Below, in pieces: positions 16,102 to 62,954 of a DNA stretch of 64,000 bases. The stretch is from a virus (Duplodnaviria > Caudoviricetes), in the IMG/VR virus record IMGVR_UViG_3300037041_001930; one strand, 5' to 3'. A model generated the notes under the pieces. That model ran no database searches and was not told the DNA's origin. It saw only the letters and a program-made list of their open reading frames with translations. Made by a program: the position numbers and the translations under genes. Numbering within the stretch: the stretch's first letter is position 1; the number at the start of each line of letters is the position of its first letter.

Positions 16102-17703
16102 CTATCGGGAAACAATGGTGACCCCCACGTTTGCCGGTGGGCACGTAAAGAAGGTGTTCAGGGGCGAGAACCCCTTGAGGTAGTCAGTGGGAATCGTGAT
16201 GAAGGAAGCATTGGCGAGGACCACATTGGTGAGGTCCGGGGCCAGGATGGTTGCATTGAGGACGACATCGGCGACTTCGCCCGAGGCGATCAACGGGGAC
16301 ACCGCGGTGTAAATCGTGTAGGGGCTGAGACGAGTGACCCCGAAGTTCAGGGCGTTGATCGCATTGGATACTGCGGTCTGGACCTCAGCGATGACGGGGT
16401 AGACACCGCCTGGCGGGATCTGGATTTCCAGGGAGACCCCGATCATGCAGGGGATTCCAGCACGCACGTAGACATCGGTTCCCGAGGGTCGCACACCAAG
16501 GGAGTACGCATAGTTTCCTACGGCATCAATCGACGGCATGTATAACACGTCGACGTCATACTCAGCCGAGGACCCCGCGGGGACATCAGTGTTCAACGTG
16601 GTATCCGTGAAGACAACTCGGAGATCAACGATGCCACTATAATTGAGATCTGATGTCTTCAGGGTTGTCGGTGTAAACAAGAGATCCTGGCGCTTCAGGG
16701 GAACCACGCTGACAGGAGCGTCGCCTTGGGCACCCGGGGTATTGATGGGTCGAATGAACTGGACCCGATAGATGCCCGCGGAATCCGGGTTCGAGATCGT
16801 GAAGGCGCGCTGACGCCCCGTGGTCGCCGCGGTTGCCGTGACCCTCAGAGTCTTCTGCACCGGGAACGCCGAGGTCTTGCACCAGATGTCTTCCTTGGCG
16901 CCCTGGGAGGTCCCGAAGACGTTGCCACGATCACGGGTCATCAGCCCACTGCCGATACCGATGACTGCGGTCTTGATACCGGCGAACTGGGCGTTCAGGG
17001 CGGCCTGGATGTGGTCGGGGCCTCCAAAGGTCTTCGCGGTGACACCGTCTTGGGCACGTGCCAGGAGTTCAGCAGTGGTCTCGGTGTCCTGGCCACCCGT
17101 GAAATCCGTGGCCGCCATCGCGGTTTCCATGCCATCAATGGGGGCAGTGATAGTCAACGCGGTGCCCGCACTGATGAGCCCCGCGCTACCCGAAGTCGTC
17201 GCGGTCACGGGAACCGTGAACTCGTATTTGCCATCGGCACGTGGGATCAGGATCTTCTGTGTCGAGGTCTCGGCGACCCCACTGCCGGCGCGGAGGACAC
17301 GGATGAAGTCAGCGGTCTGGTAGGTGACCCCGTTGGCCCCAAACATGTAACCCTGGGGGATCACATAAGTCGTGTTCAAGTTGACGACGATGCGCACGGG
17401 CCCCGACGCCGGCGAGGCCTGGCGTCGTGTGATGTAATAGTTTGAGATCAGGGAATCCACTTTGGTGTCGTCGACATCCACCAAGTTGTCGGCGATGGCC
17501 TGCAGGGAGAACGACTTGTTCAGGGCATCAAAGTTGGCGTCGTGGACCGCGGCCATCTGGGCCTCGTTCTCGACGACGAGACCGGAGATCGCGGACCCAT
17601 CAGCGAGATCCAGGGTGGGATCGCGTTCGATGAGAACCGCCTTCACGAACTCCTTGGCGGACTGATAGGTTTCAGCAGAGATTGGCGCGGTTAAAACGGT
17701 CAT
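16102..17703 (-). CDS. Baseplate J-like wedge protein (T4 gp6 / P2 gpJ family), 533 aa
   Basis: DPTLDLADGSAISGLVV and TDFTGGQDTETTAELLARA are typical baseplate-J motifs. Confidence 0.85.
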   Translation of the reverse strand: MTVLTAPISAETYQSAKEFVKAVLIERDPTLDLADGSAISGLVVENEAQMAAVHDANFDALNKSFSLQAIADNLVDVDDTKVDSLISNYYITRRQASPASGPVRIVVNLNTTYVIPQGYMFGANGVTYQTADFIRVLRAGSGVAETSTQKILIPRADGKYEFTVPVTATTSGSAGLISAGTALTITAPIDGMETAMAATDFTGGQDTETTAELLARAQDGVTAKTFGGPDHIQAALNAQFAGIKTAVIGIGSGLMTRDRGNVFGTSQGAKEDIWCKTSAFPVQKTLRVTATAATTGRQRAFTISNPDSAGIYRVQFIRPINTPGAQGDAPVSVVPLKRQDLLFTPTTLKTSDLNYSGIVDLRVVFTDTTLNTDVPAGSSAEYDVDVLYMPSIDAVGNYAYSLGVRPSGTDVYVRAGIPCMIGVSLEIQIPPGGVYPVIAEVQTAVSNAINALNFGVTRLSPYTIYTAVSPLIASGEVADVVLNATILAPDLTNVVLANASFITIPTDYLKGFSPLNTFFTCPPANVGVTIVSR

Positions 17704-35835: not shown

Positions 35836-38820
35836 CTACCCAACGGTCCATGTATCCGTGAGTCTATTGATGTTAATGCTGCAAAGTTTTCCAACGTATC
35901 GATTAGCCCACATCGTGCGTGGTATGTCAAATCTAGCACGTGAGACCCATACCCCATCAGCGACCTCACCTATGTAAACATAACCCCCGAGATCTGTTAT
36001 TGGCCCTGGGCCATCTGTGTCTTGATTTGAGTAATTTATGTATAAGTCTGCCGTTAGTGTCGTTTGCCCCTCGGGTGTCACATAGCGATTTCTCCAACCA
36101 ATACCACCACCATGAAAACCACCACTATTTTCATAGGGGCATGTAATCGATACATCTGTCCAGACTAAGCCAGTTGGCTGCCCTGGGTTTGGTTTATACC
36201 CGCAACTAATCGCTACTTCGACTGCAATTGCAGATACGCAACCAGTGGGCACCTGGCTTGGTGTACGTGGGGCCAACGCGGTACACACCAGCTTTGCGCT
36301 TCCAGGAATCACTGAACATGAAACCAGGTCAACTATTTTAGTCAGCGGCTGTACTAATTGAATGTCAGTGACGTAGCATCTGTCACTAGTATCCCATTCT
36401 ACACTGGATACGGGTTCCAACCCAGGCAACAAAGAACCAGGTTGGCAGGAGCACGGTCTGGTTTCAAGCGCGGGTTCACAACTATAGAAATCACTTTTAC
36501 AACAGAAAATGTTGATGGCTTTAGAATTATCACCATGGTACGCCGCAGGGCGATGTCCTGCATAATAAGTGTTCGCTAGCTCCTCGCTAGCTGCGAATAA
36601 AAACTCAGTTTTAGTAAGAACCCAATGATATAAATCATAATTCCAGACATCAACTTGCAGAACAGCTACTCTAAAATCACAGCAATCGCAATCGCAGGAA
36701 GCTATGGGTTCTGTTGCTCCGAGGCATGCTTCACCCCGTACAAATAGCTTAACGGTAGCCGATGCACCGTCGGAGCACACCTCAACTTGCTCCGGTACAT
36801 ATTCATAGCCACCAACGCAAAGCCTTGATATCAAGGCTTCTTCGGCATCAGTGCACGCTGTCTCAATAAACACATCAGCCTTGAGATCTGTGGGTGTGAT
36901 GTCGACTCCATCATGAGTATGTGTTTCGCAATCCGAGCACGTATCCGGTGGGGGCGTGCACGCAGGGCCAGTGGGGCCACTCGGGCCAGTCGCCCCGGTG
37001 TCTGAGTCTGCGCCCCGGGGTCCAAGCCTCCCTTTTTCACCATGTGGCCCTGGATCTCCCGGATACACGTTGCCATCAAAGCCTGTGGGGCCCCTTGGTC
37101 CCCGTTTTCCGTAGTCCCCACGTGGACCCTGACGTCCTGGGTCACCATCTGGACCCCTTGGACCAGTTGGTCCCATGGGTCCATTCACGTTACCACCTCC
37201 GGGTCCCATGGGTCCCGCGGGGCCACGGGGACCCGTGGGACCCGGAGGCCCATCTTCACCGATTTCACCTGTGCTACCGTCTGGACCCTGAACCCCGGTG
37301 GGCCCCGGTGGCCCAAGTGGGCCAACATCGCCTTTAGGACCGACTCCACCGGCAACCCCTGCGGGTCCCTTGTCACCGGGGGGGCCTTCTACACCAGGGA
37401 TACCACGTGGACCCTTGTTGCCATCCAGGCCTGGGAGACCAGGTTTACCTGCGATTCCGGGGTCACCTTTGATACCACGAACACCAGGTGGCCCCTCAGG
37501 CCCCATATCACCTTGTGGGCCTACTATTCCCTGAACCCCCTGTGGACCCGTGACAGATAAACCAGTGGGGCCCTCCTCACCTTGAGGGCCCTGAACACCT
37601 TGTAGCCGCCTCTGTGGACCCTGTGCACCAGTTATACCTGGTAACCCAATGATGCCCTGCAGCCCCGTAAACCCACGTGGACCCGTGACCCCCGTAGACC
37701 CAGCGATGCCATGTAACCCCATCTGCCCCTGTGGACCCCGAGGTGCCCATGCCTGAGAATCCCATGTTGATGCCTCCGTACGTGTGTAAACAACGGCGAA
37801 ATCAACGGCGAGATAGGTATAGCCAGTGGGAACACTGATCGCCTGTGGTCGGTCTGCTAGGGTCCCTACTCCGTTCAAAGACTTAGTGCTATCGACACCC
37901 CGCGGCCCCATGACACCAGTTGGACCAGCTGCACCCACACCAGGAGGGCCCTGGATACCACGTGATCCCGGGACCCCCACTGTGCCTTGAACCCCTGTGG
38001 GGCCCACTATTCCAGTGTCCCCGTCTACTCCCTGTTGCCCCTGTGGACCCTGGAGCCCTTGGGGACCCTCGACGCCCTGGGGACCCGTGTACCCTTGTAA
38101 GCCCTGTAAACCCACTGGGCCAGTGGGGCCTAGAAGCCCAGGCCCCGTGATTCCTTGGGGGCCTCGAGGTCCGCTCGCACCTTGGGGTCCCGTGGCACCT
38201 ACTCCGACCTCAGTCCAATCTGCAATAGTGTTTGTTCGTGTGTTAGCTGTACATAACCACAGCGAGAAGTTTCCAGCGTCTTCGATCCAACGATCACCCT
38301 GTGAATACTCTCTGGTGAGAACCCACCCACGTGTTCCCCGCCATTCCTTGAACGGAGACGACAGTGACAGTGAGCTCGGGTAAATCTTAGCAGCGATTAC
38401 CCATGCTCGGATGAACCAAATGTAGAGTTCGTTGCGGTCTGTATCAAACCATCGAAACCCAGTATCAGCACGACTCAACGAAGTCGCGACACGCTGAGCA
38501 GTGGATCCGAATTGAACCTGGAGCTCGGCGATGTGCTCCGATGTACTTACGAGACCAACGAGTTCCTGTGCGGCGTGTCGGATGGCTGTGGTGCCTTGGA
38601 GACCACGAGAGAGCCCCATCAAGTATCTACCAGAAATCGAGGTATATCTGATGACTTCACTGGGGGTACCCACTAATCCCGTGCCCACTACGACGACCCC
38701 ACCCTGAGGTGGCAGCTTCGCGGCATCCACGACTTCAACAAAAGAGCCAGGCCCCTCGGTATCAGCGAGAAGTGCCGTGGCCAGGCGAGTTAGTGTGTCG
38801 TTTTGAATTGGCAGTGCCAT
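35836..38820 (-). CDS. Collagen-like fibre protein A (994 aa): anchor, collagen, Cys-rich tip
   Basis: Long Gly-X-Y runs (~36950-38200); shares its N-terminus with 39886-44214 and 44237-48148. Confidence 0.85.
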
Positions 38821-39855
38821 TTAGTACCCCAGGATCGTCTTGATTTCGCCACAAGTCTCGACTACGATAGGTTTCGCGGTTTTCCCCGCAACAATGAGAG
38901 ACCGCGCACGTAGAGTAATCGTGTCAAGAATTGGTGTAGTCACTGCCACCGCTTTGGTTCGTGCTGGAAACAGAGTGTCTCCGGCATGGTCGTGATTGCA
39001 GGGGGGCTGTGGTGGCCACTCTGTGAGATCACATGGTCCGATTTCCCCTGTGGGGCCCCTGGGTCCCGTGAGAACCCTCCCCTGGGGTCCCTGATCACCT
39101 GTATGACCAGTATCCCCCTGCGGCCCCATCGGTCCGAATCCACCATCCTTACCTGGTACCCCCTGGGTACCGCGTCCTCCCGGTGGCCCCTGGAGTCCCC
39201 GCTCACCCAGGGGTCCCTTGTTTCCCTGGGGGCCCTGGGGGCCCTGGGGGCCCGTTGATGACTTGCCGTCTGGACCTCGAGGTCCCGTGATTCCCTGGGG
39301 GCCTTGTGGACCCACACCAGTGGATCCCCGTGGCCCCTGGATCCCCCTGATCCCCTTGATACCGGGATCCCCCTGGTGTCCGCGTGGACCCTGGTCACCT
39401 TGGAGACCTGGGATTCCATCTGGACCCGGGTCTCCAGGAGGCCCCCAGGGACCCTGGGGGCCCTGGGGGCCAATATCCCCTGGTGGACCCATTTGACCAT
39501 CGCGCCCAGGATTCCCATTCTTTCCAGCATCGCCGGCATCCCCAGGAAGCCCTTTAGGTCCCTGCCGGAGTGGACCAACTGGACCCGGGTCCCCCTGGGG
39601 TCCACGGGGACCCGTGATGCCATCAAACCCAGGTATACCTGTTACCCCTGGCATACCAGTGATCCCCTGAGGGCCGGTACCCCCGGTGGCTCCTTGTGGA
39701 CCCTGAGGCCCCTGGATACCCCGTGGACCCCTAGGGCCAGATAACCCTTGTGGACCCTGAGCACCCACAGGACCACGTGGCCCCGTAGGACCCCGCGGTC
39801 CTGTTGCTCCCACTGCTCCCTTTCCAGGTAAAGGACCTAACCAGAGATCAGCCAT
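38821..39855 (-). CDS. Short collagen-like protein (344 aa) lacking the anchor domain
   Basis: Gly-X-Y from residue ~9 to ~280, then an HxH-containing C-terminal module. Confidence 0.85.
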
Positions 39856-39885: not shown

Positions 39886-42800
39886 TCATGCGATGAGATC
39901 CCACTCTACCAACGTGGTCTCCCAGTTAGTATTATCACCTGTACCTCTTGCAGATCCATCTGCTCTCAAACATAGGTAGTGGTCTGAGCCCACCCCCAGT
40001 TTCACGGCTGGAGCAAGTGCGGCAACAGGAACCGCTGCAGTGGACACCACTGTTCCGTCTGCTTTACGCCCAAAGGTTGTGATCACGTTACACGCGATCT
40101 CCACGATCCCGGTCCACGCCCCGATATTACATTGCCCGTTGGTGTTTGACCCCGTGGCGACCAGGGTGCCGTCGGCCTTCAATCCCACTGAATGCTGGGA
40201 CCCCGCTGCGATCGCGATGATACCTGTCCACCCCGAGACATTGCACTGCCCCGCGGAGTTCTGCCCCGTGGCCACAACTGTGTTGTTTGCCTTGAGGCCC
40301 AGTGTGAAATACCCTTGGTAACCCGCAGCAATAGATATCAGAGTTGTCCAGGCCCCCACGTTGATCTGCCCGTTTACGTTGGATCCCACTCCCACCGCGG
40401 TACCATTGGCTTTCCTACCCACTGAGAAGTTGGGGCCACTGGATACCTGGGCGATGTCGGTCCAGGCACCGACATTGCATTGCCCATAATCGTTCAACCC
40501 TGTGGCCACAACTCCACCAGAAGACAACAGCCCCAGCGTGGTCTTCGCACCACACGCGATCTGAGTTACCCCAACCCATGCCCCCACGTTACATTGGCCG
40601 ACATCGTTGTTACCCTTGGCAAAAACAACTCCATCCGCACGGAGGACAACTGTGTTTCTGCTGCCACCAGCGATTCCAATTAGGTTATGCCACCCACTAT
40701 TGAACTCGAGTTCGCCATAATAAGTGTAACCAATAGGATGGGTAGTGGACACCAGGGTTCCATCTGCTTTAACACCGACGACGGAGTATTTCCCCACAGA
40801 AATCGAGACAATGTCTGTCCACCCAGAAACATTCAGCATCCCCTTGCTATTATCCCCAACGGCGACCACTGTACCATCACTCTTTAACCCAACAGTGATG
40901 CTCTGCCCACATTTTACGGATACAAGTCCAGTCCATGTCGAGACGTTCATTTCACCATAATTGGATAAACCAGTTGCTCTTGCAGTGCCATCGGCTAGGA
41001 CGGCAACGAGATGGTGCTCCGCGATATCAAAATCAACAACATTCACGAAGCTGGCGAGGTCCAGCAGGCCACCGGGCTGGTAGTAACTGTAATCCCCACC
41101 AGTTGTCGCCAGCAGAGTCCCATTCGATTTCAAGGCGACTACACAGCCATAATGTGTACGAACCTTCGTGATTCCAGAGAACGGGAATATAGAGATCTGA
41201 CCGTCGGCATTGTTACCAGTGGCGACCACAGTGCCATCCGGCTTTAGCCCGATGGTATGTGTAGGCCCGCATGCGATCGCCGAAATCCCAGACCACGTGG
41301 TCACGTTAGTCTGGCCATCAGTGTTCTGCCCAGTGGCTACTACGGTACCGTCTGTACGCAGGCCAACCGAGTGATTCCGCCCACAGGCCACCGAGGCTAC
41401 TCCTGTCCAAGGGGTAAACCCACGAAGACCGATGTCGTTGGTACTCACCCCAACCACGGAGCCGTCTGCACGACGCCCGACGAGATGGCGAGGTCCCGCG
41501 TAGATCTCCACGATCCCGGTCCATGAGTTTGCGGCGTAGAGCGGATTCTCGGGGTTTGACGTTGAAACGACTACAGTCCCATCTGCATGCAAACCTGCCG
41601 CGAAGATATAGCCGGCAGCAATGGCCACGATCCCCGACCACATCGACACTGCATCGTAGACTTCTGAGTACCCGGTGTTCCCTGCGTACTGGACGTACCC
41701 CGAGGAGTCCAGCGCTAATGAGAAATCCTCCCCAGCTGCAATCGCGACGATACCATAGAACCAAGAAAAGTTTAACTGTCCAGAGTAGTTGCTGCCCACC
41801 CCACGAACAAATCCGCCGGAATCCAACGCTAGGGTGTGGTATGGCCCCATGGCAATCGAAACTAATCCATACCATGGGTACTGGTACCCATAGATATCGT
41901 CATATAAATTCAATTGACCGTAGTCATTCTTACCCACTGCGATCGCGTTTCCGTACTCCTCATAAATCGCAATAGTGGCGTATTCCGCGCAGTAAATCTT
42001 CTGGACACCGGACCACCCGGATACCGCGCACTGCCCATAGTTATTCAGCCCCGCAGAGAGCACGTTCCCGGCGAGTACCCCGACGGCATGCCCATTTCCA
42101 ACTGCAATGGGCCACACCCCAGGCCCCCATGTTGGAATCGCGCTGAGTTGCCCATAGGCATTACTCCCCAAGGTGAGGTACGCACCAGCGTTGTTCGTGG
42201 CAACCACGTTTTCATACCCACATGCGATATGAAACTGTGCAATAGATGACCACCCCGCGGTGTTCGTTTGCCCATAAGTGTTGTCACCTGCACCAGTCAC
42301 GGTACCGTCCGTTTTGACCCCTAAACTGTGGTTATCCCCACATGCGATATCAGTGATACCTGCCCAGCCGGATACCGCGATTTGGTTATTCGCGTTGTTC
42401 CCTGCACCCACAACAGTACCGTCAGATAGCAACCCAAGGGAGTGCGCGCCACCCCCACTAACCTTGGCAACCCCTGCCCAAGCCGAGACGTTGAGCTGGC
42501 CAGACGTGTTTAACCCAGTGGCAACAACAGTCTGATCTGCGCGGAGGCCTAGTGTGTGGTTGTACCCGCACGCCACCTGGGTAAGCGCTGCCCAGGTGGT
42601 CACATCACATTCGCCGTTCACGTTGTACCCGGTGCCCACTGCCGCGCCGTCTGCCGTCATCCCTATCGTGAACTCGAACCCGCACGCGAGCTGGGCGATA
42701 TTGGACCACCCCGATGTATTAAGCTGCCCATTGACGTTTCTACCCTTGGTTGCCACAGTCCCATCGTTTTTGATGCCAACTGTGCTCTGGTTACCAGCGG

Positions 42801-44214
42801 CGACTTGACTCACGAGGAGCCAGCCCGCCAGGTTACGCCGCCCTCCATAGTTATTACCAGCACTCAGCAGTGTACCGTCTGCACGAAGCCCGACAGACAG
42901 ACCAGTCGCCGCTGAAATAGCGATGACTTCAGACCACCCGGATACGTTACACTCCCCAGAATAATTGTAGCCAACCGCAATCGCGGTTCCGTCGGTTTTC
43001 AGACCAAGGATATGATTTCCGTTGGAGGCCACCCCTTTGATCCCAGTCCAGGCTGCACAGCCGGATTCTCCATAATAACTGTAACCCGCGAAGTAGACTC
43101 CCCCACTTGGTTTAACCGCAGCAGTGTTCTGTGTGTACCCATTCGCTGAGATTCTTTCATCGTAACTGACAGTTCCAGATGACCGAAACCAGACTTGGTC
43201 CACCGCGATATCCCACCACATGAACCCTCCTGGCTGGGAGTCATAATTCGAGCGAGGACCATCTAGCGAGGTCGCGCTTGCGACAGTACCCCCACGAGGT
43301 CCCGCTGGACCCTGGCCTCCCTGTGGACCCGTGGGACCCGTTGCACCAGGGGGTCCTTGTGGTCCTGGTGTAGTCCCCTGGGGTCCCTGGTCTCCACGTG
43401 TCCCTTGGTCTCCGCGTTGACCCCGTGGCCCCTGGGGCCCTGTTTCTCCCTGCGGACCCGTGATTCCCTTGGGGCCTACGGCACCTTGCACACCGCGAAT
43501 ACCTATAGGCCCTTTGGGGCCCAGTGGTCCCTGGATACCATCTAACGGTGGTATACCAGGGATCCCACGTGGACCGGGTTCTCCAGTGGGACCGCGAGAT
43601 CCGGGGGCGCCTGAGACAGGTATCCAGTCAGAAAGTGTGCGAGTCCTGGGGGATACCACACATCTCAGGAGTTCATTGGTGTCCGTGTTGATCCAGCGAT
43701 CTCCACCATTGTAATCCGCGTTGGCCAGGATCTCAGTGGTGCCCCCGATGAACTCTCGAACCGCGATCCCAGTACCCGCGACGCGGTCTAATAGGGGTAC
43801 AACCCAATCAGATCCCGTCCACTCGTAGAACTCATTATCGTCTGTATCAAACCATGTCTTACCGACATCCTGCGCAGTAAGGGTCATCTCACCAAGGAGT
43901 AGGCGCTCAATGGTGTCGCCCTCGCCGACCTGGAGTTCCGTGATATGCGCCGCTAATATGCTAAGCCCGCAGTAGGCCCCTGCGGGATGGCTGCTACGCG
44001 GTGTACCCATCATAGCACGTTCGGACAACATCAGGGCATGGTCAGTCTTCGAGCTATATCTAACTATCTCAGTGATCCCCGGATTCACCGTCGCGATGAC
44101 AACCACGCCCTGTGCAGGAAACAGTTCTGTATCTGCGACATGAGCTATGGTGCCCTCAGCGTCTAACACGGAGGTCAACTTGGTCAAAGCGTTGTTGGAT
44201 ACTGGTAATGGCAT
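39886..44214 (-). CDS. Collagen-like fibre protein B (1442 aa) ending in 28 RCC1/BLIP-II repeats
   Basis: Short collagen segment, then repeats of H[ST][LV]GL..DGTVVA.G.N..GQ.NV..W.GI..IA.G. Confidence 0.9.
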
Positions 44215-44236: not shown

Positions 44237-47200
44237 TTAATTCTCGATGACTTCTGAACCAATCAATGGGTTACCTGGCAGACCGCTTCCTGGTGTCTTC
44301 GTGTGGAATTTGCAGTCCGGGAGATGTCGCTCGAGGACCCATGTCGTGGTCTTCCCGCGAATCACGATGACGAGTGTGGCTAAACAATCATTTTTTTCAT
44401 CGAATGTTAGATGGGCATTGAGAACTGTACTGCCACCCGGTAAGCCTTCACAAGTCAGATCGAAAGACCCCACGTCGAGTACCCATTTCCTGGGAAATGA
44501 CTGTCTCAACCTCAGGTTGAGATTGCAGTCTCCAATTGATGGAATTTCAATGATACTGAAGTTAAAGTCAAACTCTGTCGGAGGCATACTGCACCCGCAC
44601 TCTTCGTAAGGGGTGCTTGACCCGCTTGAGTGATGGGATCCACTGGAGACATGGGACCCACTTGAGTGATGGGATCCACTGGAGACATGGGACCTACTTG
44701 AGTGATGGGATCCACTGGAGACATGGGACCCACTAGAATGGTGAGACCCACTGGAGGCATGCGCCACACTGCGCGACTTACCACTAGAAACCGATCGGCT
44801 GGATCCGTGTCCTGATGGTTGGCTATGTGGCTGACTATGTGGCTGACTATGTGGCTGACTATGTGGCTGACTATATGGCTGACTGTATGGCTGACTCAGG
44901 CAGCAGCCACTTCTCACAGGTCCCTTCCAACCTGTTGGTGGGTTTGTATTGGGGTCTGGTGGATTACCGGCTTCAGGTGACACCTCTCGCATCACATATC
45001 TCGTACAGTCAAACTGCGTGCAGGGATCCACTATCACAGATTTCATATACACGAATCGGCAAGGATCTGGATCTGCGACAGGGTCCAGCGTTATGTCGGC
45101 GACACTGACCCCTTCTCCACCGTCGTGTGTGCAGACCACACATGTACCCACACATTTGATTCTATCTCCGGTATCCGTGAACCGCATTGTGCCAACTACT
45201 TGAACCTCGGCACCTGGATACCAACCATCGGGGACGTCTCTGAACGGCCCAGCCCAGACTACCCTATCTGTGAGTTCCCATAACATAGTATCACAGTTAA
45301 ACGTGTACTCACTGATCACGAGTTCCTTCATGAGATCGCAGTTGCATTCGCATGGGTGGCTATATGGCTGACTGTGCGAATGACTCGAATGACGTGATGA
45401 CCCAGAGTGTTTACCACTGGGGGTGTGCGATGACCCAGAATGTAGATGTGATGACCCAGAGTGTTTACCACTGGGGGTGTGCGATGACCCAGAATGTAGA
45501 TGTGATGACCCAGAGTGTTTACCACTGGGTAAGTGGGATGACCCACTGGGTAAGTGGGATGACCCACTGGGTAAGTGGGATGACCCACTGGGTAAGTGGG
45601 ATGACCCACTGGGTAAGTGGGATGACCCACTGGGTAAGTGGGATGACCCACTGGGTAAGTGGGATGATCCACTGGGTAAGTGGGATGACCCACTGGGTAA
45701 GTGGGATGACCCACTGGGTAAGTGGGATGACCCACTGGGTAAGTGGGATGATCCACTGGGTAAGTGGGATGATCCACTGGGTAAGTGGGATGACCCACTG
45801 GGTAAGTGGGATGATCCAGATGGTTGCTGGGATGACCCAGATGGTTGCTGGGATGACCCACTGACAAGTCCCGATCCCGATCCCGATCCTGATCCTGATC
45901 CCGATCCCGATCCCGATCCTGATCCTGATCCCGATCCCGATCCTGATCCTGATCCCGATCCCGATCCTGATCCTGATCCTGATCCCGATCCCGATCCCGA
46001 TCCCGATCCTGATCCCGATCCCGATCCCGATCCCGATCCCGATCCCGATCCCGATCCACTTTGAGTAGGACACTCAGTTACATCACAGTCACATTCGGGG
46101 CCAGCTCCGCATGGAACAAGAACACCGATGCACTTGAACCCAGTTGATACGCATGCTTTGATTACGTCTGGGCACCAACCCACCCCATCAACAGTGAGTG
46201 TGTTCGTCAAACCTAGAGTGGCGTCTAGTGTGGTCGTGCAGAGATTCTCGGTGATTACTGCCTCCGGTGCTAAACTATCCCCTCCATCCTTTGGATCCCC
46301 TGTACCAAGGATTCCATCACATATGCAATCACTCTTGCAGTGTTGATGTGGTGCGCACTCTGGTTTGCCTACGGCGTCCCCGAGATCGCCACGTGGACCC
46401 GTGGGTCCAGTGATGCCATCAGGGCCTACTAATTCGGCTGCAGCTGGACCAACGGGTCCAGTGGGTCCCGTGTCGCCAGCGGGGCCCATTAATCCAGGGA
46501 CACCATCGAAACCCTGTATGCCGCGTGGTCCTGTTTGGGTCCCGTCAGGACCAGTGAGTCCACGTGGGCCCACGTCTCCGACTTCCCCTTTTGGACCCGG
46601 GATTCCCTGTGGACCCGTGCTACCGTCTGGGGGGCCATCATAATCGTTACCACGTGGGCCAATTGGACCCGTGATACCACGTGGGCCAGTCACTGAAACC
46701 CCTACGTCTCCCCTCTCACCCCTATCACCTTGTTCACCGGTGGCACCGGGTGGGCCTGTTGGTCCAGGTAACCCCCTCGGTCCTTTTATTACTTTTCCCA
46801 TGGGTCCGCGGGCTCCACGTGGACCCTGAATACCGGCGGGCCCCTGGGGTCCCTGGGGGCCCGGACCACCGGGGTTTCCTGGTGCCCCATCTGCACCAGG
46901 GGCACCCTGTGGACCCTTATCGCCCTGAGGTCCTTGTGGACCCGGGTTTACCTGTGGAGGCCCCTTGAGGCCTTGTAAACCCTGGGGCCCAGTGGGACCG
47001 ACACCAGTTATACCTTGCGGTCCCTGGGGTCCCTGCTGCCCTGGGGGCCCCTGCGGACCCACTGGACCCTCGAGTCCAGTGTTTCCTGGAACACCCTGCT
47101 CGCCCTGGGGCCCCACGGCGCCGTCGATGCCACGCGGGCCCGTGTAACCCTGTGCCCCCTGGAGACCCTGGGGCCCCTGGGGGCCTTGGTCGCCTTGTCG

Positions 47201-48148
47201 TGCAGTCAGACCTGAACCAGTGGGCCCCTGCGGTCCCGTGATACCCTGGGGTCCCCGGGGTCCCGTGGCACCGGCAACACCAGTCAAACCCTGTGGCCCC
47301 GTGAGTCCCTGGGGCCCAGTGGGACCCTGTAAACCCTGATAACCCATGGGACCCTTGGGACCCAGGGGTCCCATGATCGGCGATGTGTCTCCAATAGGCC
47401 CCTGGACCCCCTCAGGGCCTACTTCACCGATGTCACCTCGTGGTCCCTGTGGCCCCGTGGACCCCGGCGTTCCTGGTCCGGTGTCACCACGGGGCCCCGT
47501 GGGACCAAGAGGTCCCTGTGGCCCCGTGGCGCCAACAAGAATCGGAGACCAGTCCGATAACTGTCCCGTTGGGGTCACCGTACAAATATGTAGAGTGTTG
47601 TCGTCTACCCTTAACCAGCGATCTCCAAAAGAATATGGAAGATCCACAATATCTTCAGCCGGTGCTATGAAATCCTTTATACTCCGGCTTGGCCCAGTTT
47701 TCCCACTACCATGTGTTAGCACGGCAGCATTAAACTTGCTGCCATCCCACCTCGTAAATATATCCCCTGGGGTGTCTAGGTAGATGTATCCACGTTCACG
47801 TAACCCCAGGGTCAACTCGGCACGCTGCTCCGGAGTCATTTCATGAATCCGGAGTTCCTGGATGTGTTCAGCTGTAATCGTGGACCACAGCTTGGTACCG
47901 ATGTCCCATGCCCTCGGCGTCGTGCCCCCGAACCCACGACCATTCTGCGGCAGGAGTTCAACGAAGAGGAGCCCTGCACCAACGTTCTTGTTTGACAGCC
48001 GGATGAGTTCGACCCCGGTGGAACGTGACCCCAGGGCAACAATAATTGGTGTCGCTATCTTGGAGGCGTCGCTGACTTCGATCACGGTTCCCGAGACCCC
48101 CAGCGGGGCCGTAAGCGTGACAACGGCGTTGTTCTGGATCGGTAGCAC
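44237..48148 (-). CDS. Collagen-like fibre protein C (1303 aa) with Ser/Gly/His tandem repeats and Cys-rich modules
   Basis: Anchor, collagen (~46380-47540), then (SG)n, (SGSSHLP)n, (SQPH)n and (SGSHxS)n. Confidence 0.85.
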   Translation of the reverse strand: MLPIQNNAVVTLTAPLGVSGTVIEVSDASKIATPIIVALGSRSTGVELIRLSNKNVGAGLLFVELLPQNGRGFGGTTPRAWDIGTKLWSTITAEHIQELRIHEMTPEQRAELTLGLRERGYIYLDTPGDIFTRWDGSKFNAAVLTHGSGKTGPSRSIKDFIAPAEDIVDLPYSFGDRWLRVDDNTLHICTVTPTGQLSDWSPILVGATGPQGPLGPTGPRGDTGPGTPGSTGPQGPRGDIGEVGPEGVQGPIGDTSPIMGPLGPKGPMGYQGLQGPTGPQGLTGPQGLTGVAGATGPRGPQGITGPQGPTGSGLTARQGDQGPQGPQGLQGAQGYTGPRGIDGAVGPQGEQGVPGNTGLEGPVGPQGPPGQQGPQGPQGITGVGPTGPQGLQGLKGPPQVNPGPQGPQGDKGPQGAPGADGAPGNPGGPGPQGPQGPAGIQGPRGARGPMGKVIKGPRGLPGPTGPPGATGEQGDRGERGDVGVSVTGPRGITGPIGPRGNDYDGPPDGSTGPQGIPGPKGEVGDVGPRGLTGPDGTQTGPRGIQGFDGVPGLMGPAGDTGPTGPVGPAAAELVGPDGITGPTGPRGDLGDAVGKPECAPHQHCKSDCICDGILGTGDPKDGGDSLAPEAVITENLCTTTLDATLGLTNTLTVDGVGWCPDVIKACVSTGFKCIGVLVPCGAGPECDCDVTECPTQSGSGSGSGSGSGSGSGSGSGSGSGSGSGSGSGSGSGSGSGSGSGSGSGSGSGSGSGSGSGSGSGLVSGSSQQPSGSSQQPSGSSHLPSGSSHLPSGSSHLPSGSSHLPSGSSHLPSGSSHLPSGSSHLPSGSSHLPSGSSHLPSGSSHLPSGSSHLPSGSSHLPSGSSHLPSGSSHLPSGKHSGSSHLHSGSSHTPSGKHSGSSHLHSGSSHTPSGKHSGSSRHSSHSHSQPYSHPCECNCDLMKELVISEYTFNCDTMLWELTDRVVWAGPFRDVPDGWYPGAEVQVVGTMRFTDTGDRIKCVGTCVVCTHDGGEGVSVADITLDPVADPDPCRFVYMKSVIVDPCTQFDCTRYVMREVSPEAGNPPDPNTNPPTGWKGPVRSGCCLSQPYSQPYSQPHSQPHSQPHSQPHSQPSGHGSSRSVSSGKSRSVAHASSGSHHSSGSHVSSGSHHSSRSHVSSGSHHSSGSHVSSGSHHSSGSSTPYEECGCSMPPTEFDFNFSIIEIPSIGDCNLNLRLRQSFPRKWVLDVGSFDLTCEGLPGGSTVLNAHLTFDEKNDCLATLVIVIRGKTTTWVLERHLPDCKFHTKTPGSGLPGNPLIGSEVIEN
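44625..44757. repeat. 36 bp (2 x 18 bp) tandem repeat encoding SGSHVS/SGSHHS
   Basis: Three near-identical 36 bp units from 44625 plus a degenerate unit. Confidence 0.9.
44821..44896. repeat. 12 bp tandem repeat encoding SQPH/SQPY
   Basis: GGCTGACTATGT, about 6 copies. Confidence 0.9.
45394..45521. repeat. 54 bp tandem repeat encoding SGSSHTPSGKHSGSSHLH
   Basis: Two full units (45394-45501) and a partial third. Confidence 0.9.
45522..45857. repeat. 21 bp tandem repeat: 14 x SGSSHLP plus 2 x SGSSQQP
   Basis: CCACTGGGTAAGTGGGATGA(C/T) x14 over 45522-45815, then two variant units. Confidence 0.95.
45871..46058. repeat. 6 bp tandem repeat GATCC(C/T) x ~31 encoding (Ser-Gly)n
   Basis: Uninterrupted hexamer array with synonymous C/T variants. 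Confidence 0.95.
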
Positions 48149-60304: not shown

Positions 60305-61705
60305 CTACTTCCTTGGTGACAAGGGTGATGGTAACGGGGTTGCGCGCCTCGACAAGGCCATGCCCTGAACGAGGGCTCCGAGCGTGGCTTCATCTGCGTT
60401 GTTATTGGGATGCACGGCGAAAGCTACTTTGTAGTGGAGATAGAGGTCGGCAAGACCCCTACTCGCCGTGACATCAGGAGCACGACCAGCACCGGCCAAC
60501 TTCACATTCGGCTGACCGGAGATTGTGGCGTGGAGAACCCGACGACTCGGGTGGTCTCCGCGCATCGATGTCGCGTAATCCAGGGAGCCCACGACCTCGT
60601 CCTCGAGACGAATTGGGGTCGTGGATTCAGCGCCATCTAAAGAGTTGATTTCGATAGCAGATTTCAAGAGGCCATGAAAGCCTTGTTTAACAGCGAGATC
60701 ATGTGCCAGGTGAACATCTGGAGAGATCGATGCCATCGGGATCTCGACGACAAAGTCTGCGAAGTCCCGGATACTGAGGACACACCCACGCTTGTGGAGC
60801 CAGTTCAGCATCGAGGGGGCACCATGGGCCTCAAACGCCTTCTTGATCTCCTTGCGGGTCTCGAGATCGAGATCCTTGGGTTCTGGACCAATATCGGCGA
60901 GCTGGGCGAGACCGCCGATTCGCTTCTCGATGGTGGCCAGCCGCATCATCATCGCATACTTCGATGAGTTCAGTTTCCGCATCGAGGTCTGCAGGGCAGC
61001 CTCGAAACCAGGGACTCCTGGTCGCTCTAGTGCCACCTTCCGCAGAGTATAACCAATGCGGTCAGCGGGTTTCCATACCGTGGACTGGTCCATGTAGTAC
61101 GGATTCGGATTCTGCATGTAAACTTTTTGCCCATCCTTGGTGACTTCACCAAGCATGTGCTTGACGTGTTCGCAGTGATCCTTGGCCTCAGGTGCCTTGT
61201 GGCCACACACTGAACAGACGTCATAGGCCTGCATGGATCCCATGGATACCGGGACATCCTTGCCTTCTTCGAGAGCCTGGACCTCGTCAGCATTCTTTTC
61301 ATTGTCGAGTGCTGAGAGAAGCTCGATTCTCGACATGGGTCCGTTGTGACCCGTGAACAGGATGTCGCCCGTCTTCTTATCGGGGTCATCGTTGTCATGG
61401 TTCTTGAAGACATGACCATGAGTCTTAAATCTGGTATGACAAGTCTTGTTGTCTTTCTCGCTGAAGCCATCGTTGTTACGATTATCCCCGTAGCGTTCCT
61501 CGTCACCCACTGCGATGGTATGGATGATGGTCTTCCCTGGGATCGGCTTCATCTCGGCGAGTTCCTTCTGGAACAGGAGACCGCCGGCCTCCTTCGCCGT
61601 CTTCATGAACAGCTCTTTGTCGAACCCATGACTCGAGAATCTCACCAGGGTTACCTCAGGGGCCTGGAAGTCGTAGGTGTGCGGAGAAAGAATCTTGGCA
61701 ATCAT
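60305..61705 (-). CDS. Prohead maturation protease (herpes-assemblin/HK97-type fold) with a Zn ribbon, ~466 aa
   Basis: FKNHDN (putative His), VSMGS (putative nucleophilic Ser), CSVC...HCEH zinc motif; start MIAK at 61705. Confidence 0.75.
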   Translation of the reverse strand: MIAKILSPHTYDFQAPEVTLVRFSSHGFDKELFMKTAKEAGGLLFQKELAEMKPIPGKTIIHTIAVGDEERYGDNRNNDGFSEKDNKTCHTRFKTHGHVFKNHDNDDPDKKTGDILFTGHNGPMSRIELLSALDNEKNADEVQALEEGKDVPVSMGSMQAYDVCSVCGHKAPEAKDHCEHVKHMLGEVTKDGQKVYMQNPNPYYMDQSTVWKPADRIGYTLRKVALERPGVPGFEAALQTSMRKLNSSKYAMMMRLATIEKRIGGLAQLADIGPEPKDLDLETRKEIKKAFEAHGAPSMLNWLHKRGCVLSIRDFADFVVEIPMASISPDVHLAHDLAVKQGFHGLLKSAIEINSLDGAESTTPIRLEDEVVGSLDYATSMRGDHPSRRVLHATISGQPNVKLAGAGRAPDVTASRGLADLYLHYKVAFAVHPNNNADEATLGALVQGMALSRRATPLPSPLSPRK

Positions 61706-61709
61706 TTTA

Positions 61710-62954
61710 TTACTTGCCCCATATCTTCTCACCCAGCATGGATGCCCCGGATCCCATGAAGCCATACCCGAGTGCGCGTGCTGCGACTCCACCAAGTGTT
61801 GGCTTGGTACTAATGCGTTGAGCACCCGCGATACCATGGGGGACCCCAACGATGTTGACTACCCTGGACCCCAGACCAGACGTAAACCCCTCACGGAGTC
61901 TATGAGCCGCTTGCTCCTGCGCGGAGAGTGCCTGGTGCTTTGTGATATCCGGCGTGTTCGCATTGAAGTCAAGTTTACGTTGACCTGAATCCGCGAAGCC
62001 CACCAGTTTCTCCGCATTGGCTTGTTGAATCGCCAAGTTGGGATCACTGTTGTTACCGAAGACTCGTTTGAGGATTGACTGCTTACTGGGGTCCGGAGTC
62101 ATCGGGCCCTTCGCGGTGCCCTGATTCACGGCGTTGACCAATTCTTTGTTATCAAACAAGTCTTTGTTGTTCAGGATTGCCAGGGGGTGACTGGGATTGA
62201 CCATAGAACCCGCGGCGAACGTGTGTACCGCATTTCCGGCTTCAAGGGGAGCACGTGGCCCCTTGTCACCCTCGAGTCCTGCTGCGGTGCCCATAGCACG
62301 CAGATGGGGCTCTGCGGCTTCACCGCCCTGATTGAGTTTGTTGATGAGACCGCCAGTGGTCTGGATACCATGATCGGGGCCACCCGGCAGTTTCTTCAGC
62401 GCAGGTACAGTGCCATGGAGGACCCCAAGACCAGCACCTAAACCAAAAGCACCAGTTCCAGTGGGGGTGTTGTCCTGCAACCACGCACTCATCTTCTCAC
62501 GGGAGTCCCCGAAGATGCGACCACCAAGAGCCTTGTCGATTTCTTTGCGGTACACGTAGGCGGCGCCAAGACCAGCGGCGAGACCACCACTGGCCAAGGC
62601 CAGGGTCAACCATTCCTTGGCACCCCAGCCCTTGTCGTCCTCCTCGTCCTCGGAGTCATCCGAGACGGGATACACGGCTTCAGCGGCACACTTGATAGCT
62701 ATGTCTGCAACGTTGTACGCTGTCCTCCCCGCTGACGCATAGTCATCTGCACGCCAGTCCTTCATGTCACGTGTTTTCCAGAAATCGGGGTCGGTTACCT
62801 TACCCATAACATTGGAAACCATACCCTTACTGCTACGCCTTTTTTTGGGACTAGCGTGATTCGTTTTACTACGTGTACAGTCACCGTCTGAATCGGGGTA
62901 AACCTCTTCAGCGGCCTGCTTTGCAAAGGCGTCGTGGTCAGCATGGGTTACCAT
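61710..62954 (-). CDS. Putative head-internal protein with glycine-zipper hydrophobic segments, 414 aa
   Basis: KQAA and KCAA motifs; LALASGGLAAGLGAAYVY and GAFGLGAGLGVL segments. Confidence 0.55.
   Translation of the reverse strand: MVTHADHDAFAKQAAEEVYPDSDGDCTRSKTNHASPKKRRSSKGMVSNVMGKVTDPDFWKTRDMKDWRADDYASAGRTAYNVADIAIKCAAEAVYPVSDDSEDEEDDKGWGAKEWLTLALASGGLAAGLGAAYVYRKEIDKALGGRIFGDSREKMSAWLQDNTPTGTGAFGLGAGLGVLHGTVPALKKLPGGPDHGIQTTGGLINKLNQGGEAAEPHLRAMGTAAGLEGDKGPRAPLEAGNAVHTFAAGSMVNPSHPLAILNNKDLFDNKELVNAVNQGTAKGPMTPDPSKQSILKRVFGNNSDPNLAIQQANAEKLVGFADSGQRKLDFNANTPDITKHQALSAQEQAAHRLREGFTSGLGSRVVNIVGVPHGIAGAQRISTKPTLGGVAARALGYGFMGSGASMLGEKIWGK

Follow-up and report, generated by a model that had tools for sequence, protein, structure and literature searches.

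What is a long run of RCC1-like repeats doing on a collagen-like stalk in a phage genome? The question is raised by a gene that we call P0001, in the DNA of a virus of the Caudoviricetes (Duplodnaviria; IMG/VR record IMGVR_UViG_3300037041_001930); the window analysed here is the whole stretch of 64,000 nucleotides. The entire feature is held by a single open reading frame (ORF) on the minus strand, 39886-44214 with the stop codon at 39886-39888, which according to the ORF list and its translation encodes a protein of 1442 amino acids (aa). An original prediction had described the product as exactly 28 blades of the RCC1/BLIP-II kind on a collagen stalk, arranged as four seven-bladed propellers and probably recognizing a protein receptor. 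Our reading, to which we give a probability of roughly 0.6, is that P0001 is a virion fibre of a large uncultured phage, and that its 28 BLIP-II-type blades, likely folded as four propellers, are the host-binding head. This role is suggested by the architecture of the chain, by its neighbourhood of structural genes, by the mosaic relation between anchor and head, and by loops that vary faster than the scaffold.

Domain organization of P0001

From the N-terminus to the C-terminus, P0001 consists of an anchor of about 200 residues, a collagen stalk, a 40-residue neck and an unbroken array of blades that runs to the last residue. In Pfam searches the protein matched RCC1_2 with 398.7 bits (cut-off 22) over 16 stretches, WD40_RLD (the RCC1-like domain, PF25390) with 227 bits (cut-off 150) and Collagen with 48.4 bits (cut-off 27.2). 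By profile match it is a member of the RCC1_2/RCC1-like superfamily (PF13540, PF25390). Residues 201-310 hold 35 G-X-Y triplets, which two short breaks divide into runs of 7, 19 and 9, long enough for the triple helix of a collagen-like fibre protein; the stalk ahead of the blades is borne out. Because collagen rises 0.286 nm per residue, the stalk would be about 31 nm long. A collagen triple helix is made of three chains, and on this established ground the P0001 fibre would be a homotrimer with twelve propellers.

A motif of the form G-x-x-W-x-D-x-x-x-N/D-x-hydrophobic..W was seen by eye at three places, two of them within the anchor (aa 117-138 and aa 170-189) and the third within the neck (aa 328-347); its copies thus flank the collagen helix on both sides. 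The motif may act as a putative clamp that holds the trimer in register.

Number of blades

A hidden Markov model (HMM) was built from the protein's own repeats, and two phasings were tried. Phased on the conserved Trp (strand 1, 2, 3, loop), the model found 28 units, here numbered u0 to u27; in the other phase, which starts at G-x-N-x-x-G-Q, it returned 26 whole units, one partial unit and pieces at both ends. Units u1-u27 scored 22-64 bits, and u0 (aa 360-383) was a weak hit at 14.3 bits. P0122, an orthologue with 78% identity, also has 28 units, and its u0 hit includes strand 1, beginning with KISANG at aa 353. The orthologue on contig L006 (1443 aa) has 27 units and a sub-threshold u0, and all four orthologues keep blade 0 as a blade. 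When aa 350-1442 were shuffled 200 times, the repeat HMM had no hit at E<1e-4 in any of the shuffles. The count of 28 therefore stands. The span first assigned to the blades, 39889-43140, corresponds to aa 359-1442, with its 10-residue start motif at aa 360; the array does reach the C-terminus, and it is only the start that has to be moved, since blade 0 truly begins about nine residues ahead, at ERISANG (aa 352-358).

The spacing between blades is exactly 38 aa in 17 of 26 intervals, and between u10 and u11 it is 46-47 aa. Mean identity between blades is flat, 0.33-0.40, at all lags. No lag-7 periodicity in blade similarity, which would be a sign of whole-propeller duplication, was found, nor was any tandem repeat of blade length (114 bp) found in the DNA of the gene. 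With blades 33-40% identical and no DNA-level tandem repeat, the array is old and diverged and not the product of a recent amplification.

Fold of the blades

We modeled aa 350-1442 by AlphaFold2 with a 50-sequence alignment (model 1; mean predicted local distance difference test score, pLDDT, 71.6). Seven strand triplets were obtained for aa 392-643 (pLDDT 76-98) and again for aa 1178-1426 (pLDDT 82-98); aa 898-1159 were modeled with moderate confidence and aa 645-860 poorly. According to DSSP, the blades of the models have three strands each. BLIP-II took the top rank in Foldseek, with a template modeling (TM) score of 0.82-0.86 on the target and a root-mean-square deviation (rmsd) of 2.0-2.5 Å. 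With VIA-align, BLIP-II (1jtd_B) superposed on aa 1164-1418 with Z 33.9, rmsd 1.7 Å over 247 residues and 28% identity, followed by UVR8 and HERC2 (Z 29-32; UVR8 about 31). RCC1 chains superposed on aa 380-637 with Z about 25, and two-propeller chains of the Protein Data Bank (PDB) on aa 858-1428. The predicted structures thus show a seven-bladed BLIP-II-type propeller fold for the two terminal rings. They also confirm, as far as models go, that the RCC1/BLIP-II label is correct at the level of the fold, BLIP-II being the nearest solved structure.

The blades of P0001, with about 38-40 aa and three antiparallel strands, are of the BLIP-II type; those of BLIP-II itself are reportedly three-stranded. 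Eukaryotic RCC1, a chromatin- and Ran-binding protein that serves as guanine-nucleotide exchange factor of Ran, has seven four-stranded blades of about 51-68 aa. P0001 does not belong with it, since its blades are of 38 aa, are three-stranded and stand in the context of a collagen fibre.

What does the likeness to BLIP-II say about a ligand? Identity to BLIP-II is 26-29% and resides in scaffold residues, and a phmmer search of PDB sequences did not find BLIP-II and found HERC and UVR8 repeats weakly. As the likeness is one of fold, and a shared fold does not predict a ligand, no ligand prediction follows from it. The proposal of a protein receptor, and of binding to beta-lactamases or penicillin-binding proteins (PBPs), had been drawn from the shared fold and finds no support in our results. 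Periplasmic beta-lactamases and PBPs would in any case be poorly accessible to a phage fibre.

Grouping of the blades into propellers

How, then, do 28 blades close into rings? The family itself gives a guide. Among the 120 best homologues, almost all of them cellular, isolated arrays have 7-8 HMM hits (140 arrays) and contiguous arrays 14-16; the largest contiguous arrays there have 21-23 blades, and 28 contiguous blades were not seen among them. Isolated propellers of the family start at strand 1 and stop just past the final GQCNVxxW loop. The C-terminus of P0001 stops in the same way, and the ending ...EWDLIA is present in all four orthologues. Counting sevens back from this end places boundaries at aa 1174/1175 and 897/898. 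These two boundaries, between propellers 3 and 4 and between 2 and 3, match lengthened degenerate loops (stretches of 20 and 16 residues, for boundaries 3/4 and 2/3 respectively) and steps in pLDDT, which in model 1 climbs at u14 and drops at aa 1159-1174. The predicted rings u14-u20 and u21-u27 are in this way reasonably delimited. Degenerate loops also occur in the region u7-u13, in addition to the long u10-u11 spacing. Four sequential seven-bladed rings are the most parsimonious reading of the 28 blades, and we consider this arrangement probable; the assignment of blades 0-13 to two of the rings would follow from it.

Several observations weigh against four sequential rings. The HMM recognizes blade 0 weakly (14 bits), and model 1 closed its first ring from u1-u7, leaving u0 unplaced at pLDDT <45. 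Over blades 8-13 the pLDDT of the same model is 25-50. We also folded aa 640-1176 alone (model 2), a fragment that cuts blade 7 in half. This model has 13 blades at pLDDT 79 with no clean seven-blade closure; seven-bladed templates cover a variable 258-345 of its residues at rmsd 3.8-5.5 Å (about 4 Å). The region of the proposed propeller 2 has pLDDT 74-93 in model 2. The alignment is very shallow over blade 0, which may be why u0 was left unplaced in model 1.

The same protein, with the same role, could therefore have its blades arranged otherwise. In a nested arrangement, blades 1-7 would form ring 1 and blade 0 would complete a ring with blades 8-13, one propeller being inserted in another; in a 7+6+7+7 arrangement blade 0 would be an extension outside any propeller; or one ring could be eight-bladed. 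The closure of blades 1-7 at pLDDT 76-98 with blade 0 left out speaks for such arrangements, as does the superposition of RCC1 chains on aa 380-637, and the u6/u7 and u7/u8 junctions are both without a lengthened linker that would mark a boundary. However, an orphan blade or a six-bladed ring would break the 7/14/21 rule of the family, the shallow alignment biases the model against blade 0, the six-blade ring (blades 8-13) is precisely the part that model 1 failed to fold, and blade 0 persists in every orthologue. We regard these arrangements, taken together, as rather unlikely.

Two finer modes of closure were considered and rejected. A strand-level 'velcro', in which a ring is closed by a strand of the next blade, does not agree with the isolated propellers of the family, which are whole contiguous blades. 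Pairing of the C-terminal EWDLIA strand with blade 0 was discarded because this ending is the ordinary end of a propeller in the family.

The four rings of seven in the original prediction are in part borne out by the models: seven-blade rings are confident at both ends of the array and moderate for u14-u20, but the first of them was closed from u1-u7, and blades 8-13 were not folded in model 1.

Orthologues and variation of the loops

Orthologues of 1438 aa (contigs L002/L007), 1441 aa (L001; protein P0007) and 1443 aa (L006) lie in the same gene order, which is kept on two contigs, one of 216 kb from IMG/VR and one of 45 kb from assembly GCA_037963435.1. Scans of viral contigs yielded only two close orthologues, IMGVR_UViG_3300032236_001859 and IMGVR_UViG_3300045131_002907. 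A scan of metagenome contigs with aa 640-1176 found no relative, and none of 50,697 phage records was matched by megablast with the surrounding 10 kb of DNA.

P0007 (L001 1351-5676) is 95.5% identical to P0001 in the anchor and 41.6% in the propeller part, whereas P0122 (L002 6001-10317) is 86.5% identical in the anchor and 77.7% in the propeller part. The neck is 93% identical to that of P0122 and 62% to that of P0007. Since P0007 is nearest in the anchor and farthest in the head, and P0122 the reverse, the histories of anchor and head differ. This discordance implies, at the level of sequence comparison, recombination near the collagen region. A conserved attachment end with a divergent distal end, the pattern of phage receptor-binding proteins (RBPs), is what the comparison with P0007 gives.

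In P0007, aa 735-876 (equivalent to u10-u12) hold no recognisable RCC1_2 repeats, though the total length of the protein is within one residue of that of P0001. This part of ring 2 may have decayed, or another structure may have taken its place.

Between close orthologues, the least-conserved positions of the blade are 11-12, in the strand1-strand2 loop (46-52% identical), and 28-31, in the loop after strand 3 (56-66%), compared with about 78% overall. Positions 11, 12, 28, 30 and 31, which were picked after seeing the data, are when pooled 56% identical versus 81% elsewhere (Fisher p 6e-17), and this choice counts against the strength of the contrast. In the distal ring the loop positions are 44% identical versus 85% for the scaffold. 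Both variable loops would lie on one face because of the beta-meander topology. The alignments show a shared anchor, variation focused on loops and mosaic evolution.

Comparison with known propeller proteins

BLIP-II of Streptomyces exfoliatus (PDB 1jtd, 3qhy, 3qi0), like the rings of P0001, has seven blades of about 38-40 aa with three antiparallel strands, but it is a single, free, secreted propeller, whereas P0001 carries 28 blades in one chain on a phage collagen fibre. Bacterial RCC1_2 (PF13540) multi-propeller surface and sensor proteins are 35-47% identical to P0001 over 14-21 blades and have the same motif and array ends; in place of collagen they carry Peptidase_M23, SH3_3, PKD, fn3, InlB B-repeats, kinases or TIR. 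The nearest cellular homologues are 14-blade arrays with Peptidase_M23 + SH3_3 + PKD, fn3, InlB B-repeats, Ser/Thr kinases or TIR. Judged from sequence, such partner domains fit a general extracellular binding or sensor module, and M23/SH3 might point to the cell wall. Of the 120 best hits, the phage orthologue P0007 is the only one with collagen.

Propellers on phage RBPs are known but few, PRD1 P2 being one case. In phiKZ, gp131 and its paralogues gp132-135 (PDB 4gbf) share an N-terminal attachment domain and differ in their distal parts; the C-terminus of gp131 is a seven-bladed propeller at the fibre's distal end, a proposed host binder, and its location on the baseplate has been shown (PMC13250141). 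P0001 resembles gp131, of a jumbo phage, in belonging to a fibre family whose members have a common N-terminal domain and in carrying seven-bladed propellers distally. It differs from gp131 in the stem, which in gp131 is a helical bundle instead of collagen, and in the head, since gp131 has a single propeller whose sequence family is unrelated (Z 15, 10% identity). Gp45, an RBP of Staphylococcus phage phi11, is a homotrimer with a triple-helical stem and one five-bladed propeller per chain; the propellers make few mutual contacts and have a putative sugar site (PMC4901313). As proposed for P0001, each chain of Gp45 brings its own propeller on a triple-stranded stem; unlike in P0001, the propeller is five-bladed and four-stranded, there is one per chain, and the stem is a coiled coil followed by a tower domain.

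RCC1-like proteins themselves are not new in phages. Coliphage phAPEC6 has eleven of them, for which the authors suggest a possible role in DNA ordering (PMC7247149). Clostridioides phage LIBA2945 (MF547663.1) encodes gp38, a 1627-aa RCC1 protein (L004 5761-10644) with 23% identity to aa 424-1368 of P0001; its gene stands between two annotated tail fibre genes, a few genes upstream of the endolysin. BFVD contains multi-propeller 'RCC1' proteins of uncultured Caudovirales. None of these proteins (phAPEC6, LIBA2945, BFVD), some of which have several propellers per chain, has the collagen stalk or the anchor of P0001. The P0001 head is matched at E <= 1e-5 in 11 of 50,697 deposited phage records. 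A scan of IMG/VR gave 93 RCC1-type stretches, mostly single seven-blade propellers and some with 14 blades. Among the homologues and viral contigs searched, collagen and propellers are joined in one protein only in P0001's own orthologues, and we found no study in the literature of RCC1-type propellers as tips of phage fibres. Four propellers fused to a collagen fibre are a new form among phage RCC1/BLIP-II propeller proteins.

Other long arrays were seen in the same scan. An ORF of at least 3548 aa (L016 3190-13833; IMGVR_UViG_3300034082_004705) has 28 RCC1_2 blades as 14+7+7, with long spacers and no collagen, and ORFs of 2199 and 4059 aa on two contigs (L067 and L081) have 23-25 blades in scattered positions.

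Collagen-like phage tail fibres and the 'bouquet' lectins of the collectin/C1q kind use a G-X-Y helix as a spacer for globular heads. With P0001 this is an analogy only: the usual heads of collagen fibres and collectins are compact trimeric domains, while P0001 has about 1090 aa of monomeric propellers per chain.

Anchor and genome context

P0001 is the second of four consecutive collagen genes (Table 1). By alignment, its anchor of about 200 aa is common to the 1303-aa, 1442-aa and 994-aa fibres, whose tips differ. Outside the locus the anchor matched weakly a 'tail protein' of Staphylococcus phage SAP3 (E 2e-4). Searched alone, it gave marginal matches to virion or tail PHROGs (E 1e-4 to 1e-2), and its nearest Atlas clusters are all viral, which serves as a lead only. 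Pfam and PHROGs searches of ten neighbouring large ORFs gave no match, and the site of attachment is therefore not inferable from the neighbours. The putative association of P0001 with the virion is well motivated by the anchor common to three fibres, by structural genes on both sides and by the weak likeness to the SAP3 protein.

Table 1. Features of P0001 and of neighbouring genes, with positions in the window
Feature	Position	Strand	Basis or remark
Whole fibre gene P0001, 1442 aa	39886..44214	-	ORF list, translation; orthologues 1438/1441/1443 aa
N-terminal anchor, aa 1-200, common to two neighbouring long fibres	43615..44214	-	Alignment of fibres
Collagen-like stalk, aa 201-310	43285..43614	-	Pfam Collagen; triplet count
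Neck, aa 311-350, with G-x-x-W-x-D...W motif	43165..43284	-	Translation read by eye
Blades u0-u6, aa 351-616, proposed propeller 1	42367..43164	-	HMM hits 0-6
Blades u7-u13, aa 617-897, proposed propeller 2; most irregular, worst modeled	41524..42366	-	HMM hits 7-13
Blades u14-u20, aa 898-1174, proposed propeller 3	40693..41523	-	HMM hits 14-20
Blades u21-u27, aa 1175-1442, proposed distal propeller 4; best modeled, fastest-changing loops	39889..40692	-	pLDDT, BLIP-II superposition, loop identity
Sister fibre upstream, 1303 aa, with the common anchor, collagen, modules rich in Cys and long Ser/Gly/His repeats	44237..48148	-	
Collagen-only protein, 344 aa, no anchor	38821..39855	-	Same place in L002
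Downstream sister fibre, 994 aa: same anchor, collagen, different tip	35836..38820	-	
Prohead-protease-like gene	60305-61849		Flanks fibre region
gp6-like baseplate wedge gene	16102-17703		Flanks fibre region, other side

Two points of this context count against a tail fibre. Nearly all of the 'tail fibre' PHROG matches of P0001 are due to the collagen part, with marginal matches for the anchor by itself, and the position of the fibre genes, between those of head and tail, makes attachment at the neck or head possible. The protein could accordingly be a neck, whisker or capsid fibre that provides loose multivalent adhesion to surfaces or cells, and not a tail RBP that triggers infection. The three fibre genes directly follow the head module, well ahead of the gp6-like baseplate gene, and the anchor has no significant match to any known baseplate-attached fibre, as this alternative would have it. 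On the other side, in jumbo phages the position of a gene is a poor guide, a conserved anchor with a divergent head and loop-focused variation is the usual signature of a host-range determinant, and phiKZ offers the precedent of a propeller-tipped paralogous fibre family on the baseplate. We judge a fibre of this other kind to be unlikely.

The neighbouring collagen genes have features of their own. The Cys-rich modules of the 1303-aa fibre are separated, at about aa 590-1000, by very long in-frame low-complexity tracts that have no counterpart in the other fibres; these comprise a run of (SG), SGSSHLP in about 14 copies, and repeats of the SQPH/SQPY and SGSHHS kinds. The 344-aa protein is nearly all collagen triplets and has equal length and position in the 216-kb relative (L002 10351-11385); the anchored fibres may use it as a partner or as a spacer.

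Proposed role and significance

In the role that we propose for P0001, the N-terminus of about 200 aa would dock the fibre to the particle through the module common to the two sister fibres. Residues 201-310 of three chains would come together in a collagen-type triple helix, about 31 nm in length, to make one fibre, and each chain would present its 28 three-stranded RCC1_2 blades, most likely as a row of four seven-bladed propellers, so that a fibre would have twelve. These propellers would be the host-binding head, with the strand1-strand2 and strand3-strand4 loops on the binding face; the distal propeller would be the main determinant of specificity, and the number of propellers would give avidity. 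A multivalent fibre head, as in the original prediction, is a reasonable proposal.

It is highly improbable that the propellers act like their namesakes, as a BLIP-II-like binder of beta-lactamases or PBP-fold proteins or as an RCC1-like organiser of DNA inside the capsid: BLIP-II is the top structural match, a DNA-ordering role has been speculated for phage RCC1-like proteins (PMC7247149) and PHROGs places RCC1 families in nucleotide metabolism, but a collagen stalk and an anchor common to two other fibres make internal DNA binding very unlikely, the short three-stranded blades are unlike those of eukaryotic RCC1, the sequence search gave no match to BLIP-II, and the partner domains of the cellular homologues fit a general binding or sensor module. 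The families concerned, phrog_16766 and phrog_7220, are filed under 'DNA, RNA and nucleotide metabolism', and the names in BFVD refer to chromosome or DNA condensation. The condensation name of phage RCC1 families appears to have been carried over from eukaryotic RCC1 and is probably misleading.

For binding studies, the P0001 head or its single propellers are natural self-contained constructs, and the blade, being small and three-stranded with two variable loops, is attractive as a natural scaffold for binders. In practice, such studies are limited by the fact that only metagenomes have yielded this phage and that it has no known host. Four tandem propellers would make an unusually large, multivalent fibre head.

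More broadly, RCC1-like proteins are common in large phages, where chromosome or DNA condensation is their annotated, putative function (PHROGs, BFVD, PMC7247149). The same fold at the end of a collagen fibre, with the anchor of two other fibres, is strong architectural evidence for an external binding head. Tentatively, and with the doubt that so wide a claim deserves, P0001 may be the first case in which RCC1/BLIP-II-type propellers are covalently attached to what is unmistakably the scaffold of a virion fibre; with twelve propellers, each fibre would be a bouquet like that of a collectin, binding by avidity and possibly with different ligands for each ring. If so, the phage genes now called 'chromosome condensation regulator' might prove to be widespread, loop-diversified host-binding heads.

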